NCBI GenBank assembly: GCA_046757025.1
Contig: JBHHXN010000001.1
Location: 59,185-123,184, forward strand
Source of the DNA: a bacterium
GTDB lineage: Bacteria > Zhuqueibacterota > Zhuqueibacteria > Oceanimicrobiales > Oceanimicrobiaceae
Direction: 5' to 3'
Length of the DNA stretch: 64,000 nucleotides
Below, piece by piece: positions 48,001 through 51,000 of the stretch (position 1 is the stretch's first letter; every line of letters starts with the position of its first letter). A program made the position numbers.

Positions 48001-51000
48001 TCTAAATGATTATAAAGACGGTCTGTTGTTTTTCTACTTTTCGAGCACCGATTTGAATGCGCACATGTTTTATAACATGATCGATCCGCAACATCCATCT
48101 TACGATCCGGCGAAAGCGGAAAAGTTCGCTAACGTCATTCCCTCAATTTATCAAAAAGCAGATAAAGTGGTCGGCAAAGTGTTAGATCGGGTGGATGAAC
48201 ATACCACTGTCATCATTATGTCGGATCACGGTTTCGCCCCGTTTCGGCGAGCGGTACATTTGAACACTTGGTTAAAAGATCAGGGCTACGTCAAGCTGGT
48301 GGATGAGTCCAAACAGGCGGACAGCGAATATTTTTTAAATGTCGATTGGACGCGAACGCGAGCTTACGGGCTGGGATTCAATGGCTTGTATGTAAACCTG
48401 CGTGGCCGGGAGATGAGCGGATTCGTTTCGCGCCGTGAAAAAAACGCCCTGCTGGATGAGATTTCTGAAAAACTACTGGCACTGCGTGATCCCAAAAACG
48501 GCGTAAAAATTGTGGACCGGGTGTATCGGGCAGAGGATATTTATTCGGGAGCGTTCGCAGAATTTGCGCCCGACCTGGTGATCGGATACAGTCGAGGGTA
48601 CCGGGCTTCCTGGGAAACCACCATCGGCAATTTCCCGCTGGAATGGATCGAAGACAACATGGATCCCTGGAGCGGTGATCACTGCATGGCAGCAGAGCTG
48701 GTACCCGGCATCATTTTATCTAATAAAAAAATAAAATTAGACAATCCAAAATTGTATGATCTCGCGCCAACTATTTTGGCTGAATTTGGCGTGCCGAAAA
48801 AAGAAGAAATGGTTGGACGAGTCATTTTTTAATTATTGGCTAAATTGGTACAAGGAGATTGCGATGTTAGGACCTAAAATCAAATTAGAAAAAGAATTGT
48901 ATGACCGTGTGAAAAAATTTGCTGATATTGCCGGCTATTCTTCTGTGGAAGAATTTATTACGCATGTTCTTGAAAAGGAGCTGTCGTCCATCGACGATTC
49001 CGAATCAGAAGAAGAGGTCAAAAAGCGTTTGCAAGGATTGGGATATTTGTCATAGCTGAGCGACGGGTACTTATTAATGATTTGAAACCTGAACTGTAAT
49101 GATTTGACAGGAAATATGATGAATATTTTTAATGCGGTATTTAGCGCCATTTTTAACATGCTTTTTTATCCATTTAACAGCCTGGCCCCGGTGTGGGGTA
49201 TGCTGATCATATCGTTTGTCACCGGTGTTGTGATGTTGTTCATATTTAAAGCGACTTCGGACCAGAAGGGCATCAAACAGGCAAAAAATTTTGTTAAGGC
49301 TCATTTTTTAGCCATTCGGTTGTATCGCGATGATATTGGCTTGATGTTCAACACCATGAAAAACATTCTCGTGAGTAATATGCTTTACATGAAGAAGTCG
49401 CTGCGTCCTATGCTGTTTTTGATCGTTCCGGTGGGCGTGATTTTGATTCAGCTCGGCAGCCGTTACGAATTTCGACCCTTCAAAGTGGGGGAGACCTTTA
49501 TTTTAACACTGCGCCTGCATGAAGCGATTGAGAATGTGGATTTGAAAGATGTTGGGATTTCCTTGCCTGTGGGTTTGAGCCTGGATATGCCGCCGGTGAA
49601 AATAGCCCGGCTTCGTGAAGTGAACTGGCGGGTAAAAGCAGAACAGCCCGGCAGTTATGATGTGGTTTTTAAATACCAGGGCAGCACGGTGAATAAGCAA
49701 TTACATGTCGAGGGTGCGCTGGTGCCCATTGCCAGAGAAATTGCCCGAAGTAATTTGTCGGTGGCGCTCATGAACCCGGCTGAATCGAGTTTGCCGGGCT
49801 CTTCATTTGCGTCAATCATTTCTGTTGGCTACCCTAAACGGGATTTTGAATTCTTTGGATGGCAATTTCACTGGCTCATCGCTTTTTTTATTTTCAGCTT
49901 GATTTCTGCATTTGCCTTTAAGGGATTTTTGGGTGTGGAAGTTTAAAACGAAATCTCTATTGAAATGAATTCGACCTCAAGAACTACTGCAAAAGGATAT
50001 TTCGATTCCCATGAGTTATAAACTTCTTTCTGTTAAAACAACCCAGGAGCACGACCTGGAGCAATGGAGTAACCGAAGCCTGGAAGGCGAAATAAACAGT
50101 TTTAACGGCCGCACTGTGGCTCGCATTTTTGATGAATATTTAAATGGCAGTAATTTGAATATTCTGGAAGGCGGTTGCGGATTTGGCGCCTGGTGTGAAT
50201 GGTTTCAACAAAAAGGTTACGACGTTGTCGGTATTGAGTATGACAGGAACATCGTTGAAAATGCCAAAAAATTCAAGCCTAATGTAGCGGTGGAATTGGG
50301 CGATATCACCAATTTACAATACCCGGACAACCATTTTGATGTGTACATTTCGCTCGGGGTGATCGAACATTTTGAGCACGGTCCGGAGAAAGCCTTGCAA
50401 GAAGCCTACCGAATTCTTAAGCCCAATGGCCTGGCCTTTGTTACCACACCGTATTTGACGGTTTTCCGAAAATTCATATCGCATCCTGTCAGAAGTTTGT
50501 ATTTTCTAATTCGCAAACTTCGAGGACAGAGCAGTCACTTTTGGGAATACCGCTTTACGCAGGAAGAGCTGCAAACTTTTCTTGAAAAGGCCGGCTTTGA
50601 AATCATTCACAAAGATATCGACGACTACGAACCTTATGTGAACAACCGCCACATCGGCTTGTGGGCGGACTGGTATTTTTTGCGTAAAAAAAATGGCGAA
50701 ATCTGGGAGCTGAACACGTTGGGGAAATTTATTCTGGCCATATTTAAAATATTTCCCGCCTCCTGGTATTGCTCCGGCCTGCATTTGGTTGCACGGGCTG
50801 TAAAGGATGATTCGAATCATTCTCATAATTCAAATACATTGAACCAAAATTAAACCAAGGAAAGGAAATTTATGTCATTAATTGCGCCTCATGGAGGCAA
50901 GCTTGTTGATCGTATTTTACGAGGAGATGAACGCTTAGCTGCCCTGGTAAAGGCAAAGGGCTTGCAGAAACTGACGTTAAACGCCACAGCTATTTCCGAT

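Follow-up and report, generated by a model that had tools for sequence, protein, structure and literature searches.

We analysed a stretch of 64,000 nucleotides (nt) from a bacterium of the Oceanimicrobiaceae (Zhuqueibacterota; assembly GCA_046757025.1, contig JBHHXN010000001.1, positions 59,185 to 123,184), hereafter called the window, and focused on a small gene within it, RHH1. The whole window is a co-directional Wzx/Wzy-type polysaccharide locus that also encodes glycosyltransferases, an ATP sulfurylase (Sat), an adenosine 5'-phosphosulfate (APS) kinase, a FemAB-like protein, and a DUF3473 deacetylase. In a scan for open reading frames (ORFs), RHH1 occupies 48864-49055 on the forward strand (63 codons, ATG start, stop included), and a ribosome-binding site, AAGGAG, can be read 6 nt before the ATG (48852-48857, forward strand). 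The product, MLGPKIKLEKELYDRVKKFADIAGYSSVEEFITHVLEKELSSIDDSESEEEVKKRLQGLGYLS, consists of a ribbon-helix-helix (RHH) domain (residues 4-41; 48873-48986), an acidic linker (residues 42-51, SIDDSESEEE; 48987-49016), and a C-terminal tail (residues 52-63, VKKRLQGLGYLS; 49017-49052), all on the forward strand. The protein ends in ...EEEVKKRLQGLGYLS, and the core motif of its tail, L56-x-x-L59-G60-Y61-L62, lies at 49029-49052.

The original prediction, made from the sequence of the window, described RHH1 as a regulator whose tail is shared with nearby enzymes; it would fail if the ORF were untranslated, but the ORF is translated. There are >1100 homologues of 61-64 amino acids (aa) in the protein database, and the best 120 listed are 68-100% identical to RHH1 and come from metagenome-assembled genomes labelled KSB1, Calditrichaeota, Thermoanaerobaculia, Lernaella, and others. 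Among 1.8 billion cluster representatives, a profile search found 747 clusters that match the RHH1 profile at E < 1e-3, and a scan of one genome per species gave at least 438 matches. Among the matches listed in that scan, most host titles are Acidobacteriota; the others include Gemmatimonadota, KSB1, Calditrichaceae, Eisenbacteria, Krumholzibacteriia, Methylomirabilota, Planctomycetota/Brocadiaceae, Entotheonella, Gammaproteobacteria, and Thermodesulfobacteriota. Compared with eight orthologues, RHH1 has 0.09-0.26 nonsynonymous differences per site (pN) and 0.73-0.89 synonymous ones (pS, saturated), a pN/pS of 0.12-0.31. Because of the >1100 homologues and this ratio, we conclude from sequence comparison that RHH1 is a real gene, translated and under constraint.

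The fold assignment also held up in a structure-prediction check, in which the predicted model and the sequence hallmarks agree. RHH1 has the strand-helix-helix arrangement of ~40-45 residues: a strand P-K-I-K-L-E, in which hydrophobic residues alternate with lysine, helix A (residues 10-23), a turn G24-Y-S-S27, and helix B (residues 28-41), which holds an invariant H..LEKEL. In the family alignment, K5, K7, G24, S26, and S27 of the hallmark strand (K5-I-K7-L-E9) and turn (G24-Y-S26-S27) are invariant or nearly so. The AF2 model has a pLDDT of 87, with a further helix at residues 49-58 in the tail; the strand is unpaired in this monomer prediction. One of the cluster representatives (P0121) has the layout RHH-RHH-tail in tandem, as a single-chain RHH dimer would be expected to look. 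As modelled, RHH1 is a ribbon-helix-helix protein that lies outside the curated sequence models: its sole Pfam match is DUF7557 (E 0.008, 16 bits against a cut-off of 25). From this fold we infer that RHH1 may bind DNA.

The tail is indeed shared with enzymes of the locus. In a six-frame scan, L-x-x-L-G-Y-[IL] followed by 0-1 residue closes seven forward-strand ORFs between 35 and 58 kb. By our own estimate, a random C-terminus matches this pattern with a probability of ~1e-5, so seven tailed genes among ~55 cannot be chance. The hosts are not the AlkP-like genes that flank RHH1; besides RHH1 they are three PF00884 proteins, another PF01663 protein, a DUF2061 protein, and the APS kinase, all assigned with Pfam. 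The three PF00884 proteins have a sulfatase fold and are anchored by transmembrane (TM) helices: protein 1 (35332-37200; motif 37174-37197) ends in ...EERLRALGYIK, protein 2 (37451-39592; motif 39566-39589) in ...EERLRSLGYLK, and protein 3 (39739-41472; motif 41446-41469) in ...IEKLKSLGYIR. The DUF2061 protein (44302-44601; motif 44578-44598) is small, has two TM helices, and ends in ...EERLKELGYL. The tailed APS kinase, assigned with NCBIfam as well, lies at 53713-54336 (motif 54313-54333), and the TM-anchored PF01663-fold protein, PD4 (55705-57447; motif 57421-57444), ends in ...IEKKLKSLGYIN. The exact ending LGYLS occurs within the window only on RHH1.

Within the RHH1 family, the alignment shows seven invariant residues in and next to the tail (E51, K54, L56, G58, L59, G60, and Y61), and family ends read Y-[IL]-[S/E/D]. 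The aromatic residue is tyrosine in 229/229 members with a recognisable end, never phenylalanine, tryptophan, or histidine. The linker is variable yet always acidic, and a similar linker precedes the tail on APS kinases and on RHH2, a paralogous family described below. The window APS kinase carries the motif twice: a native C-terminal element (54223-54243), a linker, and the second copy at its very end. The native C-terminus of this kinase subfamily reads h-L-E-x-L-G-Y-[IL], to which tailed kinases add the linker and second copy. Native ends resemble the tail, such as ..LVELGYL of this APS-kinase subfamily, ..HLEKLGYIGA of Sat-APS-kinase fusions, and ..MEEKKRQGYF of CysD (1ZUN); a CysD-type end from another locus was also compared with it (L088 513-1322, reverse strand). 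Judging from these similarities, the tail may have arisen by duplication of a native APS kinase/CysD-type end.

Contrary to the original prediction, the tail is not confined to this locus: the same families in other phyla and in archaea carry the motif, which recurs across ~10 bacterial phyla and the Thermoproteales. Its hosts overall are APS kinases, a CysD-like protein, DUF2061 proteins, sulfatase-, PF01663-, and arylsulfotransferase-fold proteins, RHH1, and RHH2. The shared tail has its motif 0-2 residues from the C-terminus, an acidic or polar linker before it, and a host encoded in a sulfate-activation or sulfuryl-transfer locus. Seven tailed APS kinases were found in other loci (six by regular expression, and a variant in L058), with a further partial one in P0342; tailed DUF2061 also occurs in L020, and tailed sulfatase-fold proteins in other loci. 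Two loci encode tailed homologues of arylsulfate sulfotransferase (ASST; PF05935/PF14269), at L011 687-2774 and L053 1045-2739, both on the reverse strand and adjoining Sat-APS-kinase genes. Their tails read ..REKQLRVLGYVN and ..QERQLEALGYVQ, respectively, and the L053 protein has a lipoprotein signal peptide. A search with a 42-aa tail profile returned 18 short proteins, among them archaeal RHH-tail proteins, and a metagenome scan gave >600 stretches that match [IEA][EKL][EQ]RL[RK][SA]LGY, with four loci passing confirmation. Read from sequence, the tail is thus a portable C-terminal peptide tied to sulfate activation and sulfuryl transfer. We found no description of the tail, of the RHH1 gene cassette described below, or of a link between DUF2061 and sulfate or between PF01663 and sulfate activation in the searchable literature, whose coverage is incomplete and does not prove novelty.

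RHH2 is a second small family with an RHH domain and a tail (70-87 aa; strand KVTIKIPR; end ...IKKRLKNLGYL), homologous to RHH1 over its full length, tail included (hhalign probability 98.9%). RHH2 paralogues match PF01402 (RHH_1) at E 0.014-0.03, under its 20.5-bit cut-off. The strand of RHH2 differs from that of RHH1 and is MetJ-like (KVTIKIP), as expected if the paralogues read different DNA. RHH2 adjoins Sat-PF01663-APS kinase in three loci (L004, L026, and L036) and APS kinase only in L061. In the Thermoproteales, the gene order is RHH-tail, Sat, PF01663, APS kinase, RHH-tail (the Sat/PF01663/APS-kinase block lies with RHH2 in L085-L087), and in these archaeal loci the tail is found only on the RHH proteins. 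Another lineage has two RHH-tail genes facing an operon of CysD-like, PF01663-like, CysN, and DUF2061 genes; here the CysD-like protein ends in ...MMQKLRSLGYM, which aligns with ...MEEKKRQGYF of CysD in PDB 1ZUN. RHH2 tails also resemble the first helix of PG_binding domains (V..LQ..L..LGY) in their I..I...L..LGY spacing, with sub-threshold matches to PF01471 and PF08823 (E ~1e-4). We rejected a PG_binding_1/2 domain, which has three helices and ~60 residues: only the first helix is matched, the polypeptide ends after the G-Y-hydrophobic, and several hosts are cytoplasmic.

From their sequences, tailed proteins appear to occupy both compartments, with APS kinase, CysD-like, and RHH proteins in the cytoplasm and the ASST-like lipoprotein exported. 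The TM-anchored sulfatase-fold proteins and PD4 are probably periplasmic by the positive-inside rule, a weak heuristic. A single cytoplasmic partner or protease cannot serve all tailed proteins, because the tail is in two compartments, and this mixture of cytoplasmic and exported hosts weakens the proposal of one common partner, scaffold, or degradation system. For the coupling idea to survive, either both sides of the membrane must have a receptor, or the tail must self-associate, or its tyrosine must take part in chemistry. In nearly every locus that we examined, tailed proteins occur together with PF01663-like proteins that have no tail.

RHH1 had been placed between two PF01663-like genes. 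This is right for the upstream neighbour, PD2 (46853-48832); the downstream gene, mem280 (49119-49946), encodes an Oxa1/DUF106-like protein. With PD1, these genes form a cassette of sulfation loci. A BLAST comparison of the window proteins with 84 loci taken from other genomes shows that the order PD1-PD2-RHH1-mem280 is near-universal (PD1 synteny in 75/84): mem280 lies immediately 3' of RHH1 in 72 of the 77 loci uncut at that side, mostly with a gap of -16 to 40 nt, and PD2 or PD1 lies immediately 5' in 58 loci. Median identity to the window is 67% for RHH1 against 52% for PD1, 46% for PD2, and 32% for mem280, in loci that were selected by RHH similarity. Three gene models vary the arrangement, with a PD-RHH read-through or fusion in P0125 and P0220 and an RHH-mem280 chimera in P0263; these may be frameshift or assembly artefacts.

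PD1 (44680-46860, forward strand) and PD2 (forward strand) are PF01663-like paralogues in Pfam searches, and neither has a tail. The N-terminal part of PD1 (726 aa) has, in order, a segment that resembles a signal peptide and ends in ALA|YIGPGAG, a single TM helix, and a stretch rich in Lys/Arg. Since the TM helix is followed by this stretch, the positive-inside rule predicts a cytoplasmic catalytic domain. The probable ATG of PD2 at 46853 overlaps the PD1 stop, and PD2 is predicted to be exported because its orthologues begin with Sec or Tat signal peptides, most of which include a lipobox (28 orthologue N-termini). In both proteins (~700 aa), the predicted nucleophile region is (L/Q)SPVAWS, not the NPP-type T-F-P-N-H. 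The fourth cassette gene, mem280 (forward strand), encodes a 275-aa membrane protein of the Oxa1 superfamily (DUF106/YidC/TMCO1/Get1-like) with a conserved cytoplasmic coiled-coil hairpin, in which S47, Q49, K56, H62, R67, D71, and D72 are invariant, and a ~130-aa beta-sandwich inserted between TM2 and TM3. In many phyla, mem280 occurs as a dedicated part of the PD1-PD2-RHH cassette, where it might insert the PD1 hairpin, act as a scramblase, or serve as a docking platform. Between the RHH1 stop and the mem280 start lies a perfect 11-nt direct repeat, TAATGATTTGA, with copies at 49075-49085 and 49097-49107 (22 nt from start to start), the second of which abuts the mem280 ribosome-binding site. 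We dropped this repeat as a general operator since it is absent from the closest relatives (L005-L007).

We tentatively suggest, with a probability of roughly 0.38, that RHH1 forms dimers, docks its tails where the tailed enzymes are recruited, and binds DNA through its RHH face. RHH1 would be a small cytoplasmic protein in which the acidic linker joins the RHH domain to the 12-residue tail and its invariant tyrosine; like other RHH proteins, it would dimerise through the RHH strand and thereby present two tails. The most likely receptors would be the tail-less PF01663-like proteins of the module, which are the most economical candidates because there is one for each membrane side and they accompany tails nearly everywhere; on the cytoplasmic side, the conserved coiled coil of mem280 is an alternative. 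With DNA bound by the RHH face, expression of the operon would depend on whether the machinery engages the RHH1 tails. Regulatory coupling of the tail to the pathway is, in our judgement, a plausible hypothesis, which needs revising in view of tails in two compartments.

Several observations weigh against this reading. First, no RHH model in Pfam or NCBIfam matches RHH1 above threshold, and a PDB sequence search returned nothing. Second, the net charge counted from the sequence is ~-1 for the RHH core and ~-4 for the whole protein; Arc and CopG are basic proteins. Third, we found no conserved operator-like k-mer upstream of PD1 or in the intergenic DNA of 82 loci, in a k-mer recurrence search that has low power for short degenerate half-sites. 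The same was true of 24 regions between divergent sulfotransferase and PD1 genes, where only a -10-like TATACT(ACAATGCC) box recurs. Fourth, the RHH1 gene is mid-operon and tightly coupled to its neighbours. Fifth, its conservation in these loci, which were selected by RHH similarity, exceeds that of PD1, PD2, and mem280; this is unusual for a transcription factor and would better suit a hub or subunit. Sixth, the receptors of the tail are candidates proposed from gene co-occurrence and predicted topology. Last, one RHH-tail protein (P0352) is encoded in a Wzm/Wzt glycan ABC-transporter locus whose surrounding 4-5 kb contain neither PF01663 nor sulfate genes. Of the proposal that RHH1 is a DNA-binding regulator, the fold stands; no operator was found in these searches, and RHH1 is more conserved than the enzymes around it.

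A scan for promoters and terminators around the RHH1 gene also gave nothing above shuffled expectation. The divergent regions searched above belong to an arrangement common outside the window. A small P-loop sulfotransferase homologue is present in 47/84 loci and is divergent from PD1 in ~30, many of them Acidobacteriota loci (for example L016, L023, L027, L032, and L075); the window has none. In L001 (6746-7369, reverse strand), as in those loci, it is a protein of ~207 aa with the motif PRSGTS, divergent from PD1. The recurrent TATACTACAATGCC box between the two genes is, from its sequence, probably a -10 element plus transcription start, and some Thermoanaerobaculia have a GC-rich stem-loop in the leader after it.

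Known RHH proteins offer partial parallels. RHH1 differs from the Arc/Mnt/CopG/MetJ repressors in being sub-threshold to Pfam RHH models, acidic, and without a detected operator, in its mid-operon position within an enzyme and membrane-protein cassette, in carrying a peptide common to unrelated enzymes, and in a cross-phylum conservation far above theirs. The closest architecture is that of the RHH type II antitoxins (ParD, TacA, MazE, VapB, and FitA), which join an RHH domain to a C-terminal partner-binding peptide; unlike theirs, the RHH1 tail is not private to a pair but common to many enzymes. We rejected an antitoxin reading, as there is no adjacent toxin gene: in the window, and likewise in 72-plus loci, the genes on either side are PF01663-like and Oxa1/DUF106-like. 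NikR and PutA carry a sensing or enzyme domain on the same polypeptide, whereas RHH1 offers no more than a 12-residue tail and would have to rely on a partner for any sensing.

The strongest alternative to docking with DNA binding, somewhat less probable in our view, is that RHH1 is no transcription factor at all and instead belongs to the membrane module as a stoichiometric subunit or an adaptor. The RHH dimer would be a compact bivalent connector, with two tails, and perhaps a conserved surface, that bind PD1, the mem280 coiled coil, or both. Possible effects are PD1 assembly, PD1 activation, or gating of tailed clients such as APS kinase. This would account for RHH1 being the best-conserved cassette gene, for its invariant place after PD2 and before mem280, where genes overlap or almost touch, for the PD-RHH gene models P0125 and P0220, for the negative operator searches, and for the acidity of the protein. 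A neighbouring Oxa1-superfamily coiled coil also invites comparison with Get3-Get1 and ribosome-YidC/DUF106. Get3 is a cytosolic factor that docks on the coiled coil of Get1, an Oxa1-family protein, and by analogy RHH1 is a candidate ligand of mem280; RHH1 is, however, unrelated to Get3, there is no evident tail-anchored client, and mem280 has the extra beta-sandwich. Two points tell against an adaptor. K5 and K7, which face outward on the strand, show the conservation seen in DNA binders, as does the G-x-S-S turn, and RHH2 occurs without mem280, PD1, and PD2, beside Sat-PF01663-APS kinase, so the RHH fold plus tail is independent of the Oxa1-like protein.

It is unlikely, though worth weighing, that the tail, as a short amphipathic helix with a G-Y-hydrophobic cap, associates with itself, which would join RHH1 dimers into a tetramer and tailed enzymes of one compartment into multi-enzyme assemblies. 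There is a precedent in Mnt, whose C-terminal helix joins two dimers into a tetramer for cooperative DNA binding. Self-association would serve both compartments without two receptors; the tail has a narrow a/d-like hydrophobic stripe (V52, L56, L59, and L62) between charged residues, a helix is confidently predicted at 49-58, and there are several tailed proteins per locus and per compartment. Nonetheless, ~12 residues are short for a stable coiled coil, and the strict C-terminal position (0-2 residues after Y-[ILV]) and absolute tyrosine would rather be expected of a peptide that fits into a pocket. The archaeal loci with tails on RHH proteins only are a further difficulty.

Slightly less likely still is a chemical role, in which the tail tyrosine is a sulfuryl (or nucleotidyl) acceptor that becomes sulfotyrosine and works as a cis carrier or priming site on the enzymes. 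On RHH1 and APS kinase, such a tail would report the availability of activated sulfate. The tyrosine is found in 229/229 family members, and its setting is suggestive: the exported hosts have two aryl-sulfate-processing folds (sulfatase/AlkP and arylsulfate sulfotransferase), the cytoplasmic hosts make APS or 3'-phosphoadenosine 5'-phosphosulfate (PAPS), the stretch before the tyrosine is acidic like known tyrosine-sulfation sites, and the 45 large window ORFs that we scanned contain no canonical sulfotransferase domain. A parallel comes from the Dlt system, in which the essential tyrosine of the DltX C-terminal motif is an acyl carrier. Like RHH1, DltX is a very small protein with a C-terminal motif, encoded in an operon for envelope-polymer modification; it differs in being a single-pass membrane protein whose tyrosine carries D-alanine outside, whereas RHH1 is soluble and cytoplasmic and has a different motif. 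The case for tyrosine chemistry is purely circumstantial. PAPS cannot reach periplasmic tails, native APS kinase and CysD C-termini have similar G-Y-hydrophobic ends that are presumably structural, and a few native Sat-APS-kinase ends have phenylalanine. At about the same low probability, the tail would be a portable sulfotyrosine arm, an aryl-sulfate carrier or sensor that joins cytoplasmic APS/PAPS synthesis to AlkP- and arylsulfotransferase-fold enzymes on both membrane sides. PD1 (inside), mem280, and PD2 (outside) would then form a transmembrane relay, with RHH1 as its arm-bearing regulator or shuttle.

We consider it improbable that the tail is a membrane-targeting amphipathic peptide, as in MinD and FtsA, which would hold C-termini near lipid-linked glycans and sequester RHH1 at the membrane. 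Such a peptide works on both leaflets, the tail is always C-terminal and combines a basic KKR with leucine and tyrosine, and the pathway, with its Wzx/Wzy genes, PD1, and mem280, is centred on the membrane. Two glycines break an already narrow hydrophobic face, though, most hosts are already TM- or lipid-anchored, the acidic linker is unfavourable beside a membrane, and lipid binding needs no such strict sequence. Least of all do we credit a C-terminal degron that places the pathway proteins and their regulator under one protease: the tail is at the extreme C-terminus and RHH antitoxins are classic protease substrates, but the tailed proteins are in two compartments with different proteases, no protease gene is linked in the 84 loci, and a 12-residue helix-plus-GY conserved from archaea to bacteria goes far beyond known degrons. 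We also rejected an HbYX/GQYL proteasome motif, whose tyrosine is penultimate, follows a hydrophobic residue, and binds pockets of the 20S alpha-ring, since in the RHH1 family the tyrosine is antepenultimate and follows glycine (G-Y-[IL]-[S/E/D]) and some hosts are exported, and a PDZ-type degron, which is ruled out by residue position and compartment.

The remaining genes of the locus fit a pathway for modifying a polysaccharide. On the 3' side of mem280 are a methyltransferase gene and then a Sat fused to a PF01663 domain (50872-53508, forward strand; Pfam), which has no tail; a further soluble PF01663 protein follows the APS kinase (54336-55682, forward strand). This Sat/PF01663/APS-kinase block (50872-53508, 53713-54336, and 54336-55682) accompanies RHH-tail proteins in bacteria and archaea. 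Given that a canonical sulfotransferase domain is absent from all 45 large window ORFs that we scanned, the AlkP-fold proteins may be sulfuryl-transferring enzymes or enzymes that hydrolyse 3'-phosphoadenosine 5'-phosphate or APS. There is no C/S-x-P-x-R formylglycine motif in the sulfatase-fold or PF01663-fold proteins of the window, and sulfatase-fold protein 3 has ..SPKTSPSH.. at the position of this motif. The three sulfatase-fold proteins and PD4 have 3-7 N-terminal TM helices, like LtaS/EptA-type transferases. From these features, they are more likely transferases than sulfatases.

Other genes bear on the polymer itself. A heparinase II/III-like protein with about five N-terminal TM helices is encoded within this biosynthetic locus (41490-44081), a hint that a sulfated, glycosaminoglycan-like polymer is processed or trimmed in an epimerase-like way. 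Small and large subunits of carbamoyl-phosphate synthase and two NodU/CmcH-type carbamoyltransferases are also present (11490-18055 and 31357-33090), and the polymer is probably O-carbamoylated as well as sulfated.

Little is understood of how bacteria sulfate their envelope polysaccharides beyond the cytoplasm, given that the donor, PAPS, is an intracellular product and does not pass through the membrane. RHH1 marks a compact, widespread, and uncharacterised module that travels with Sat, APS kinase, sulfatase-fold, and arylsulfotransferase-fold genes. Its 12-residue tail with the tyrosine is a mutable handle on the protein contacts of the pathway and on the coupling of sulfation to expression. 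If the tail is a docking peptide, it would be a rare prokaryotic case of a pathway-wide short linear motif, extending from archaea to bacteria. If the tyrosine is modified, this would be new sulfur biochemistry, and a sulfotyrosine arm, if true, would provide a route from PAPS to periplasmic sulfation of a kind so far undescribed.

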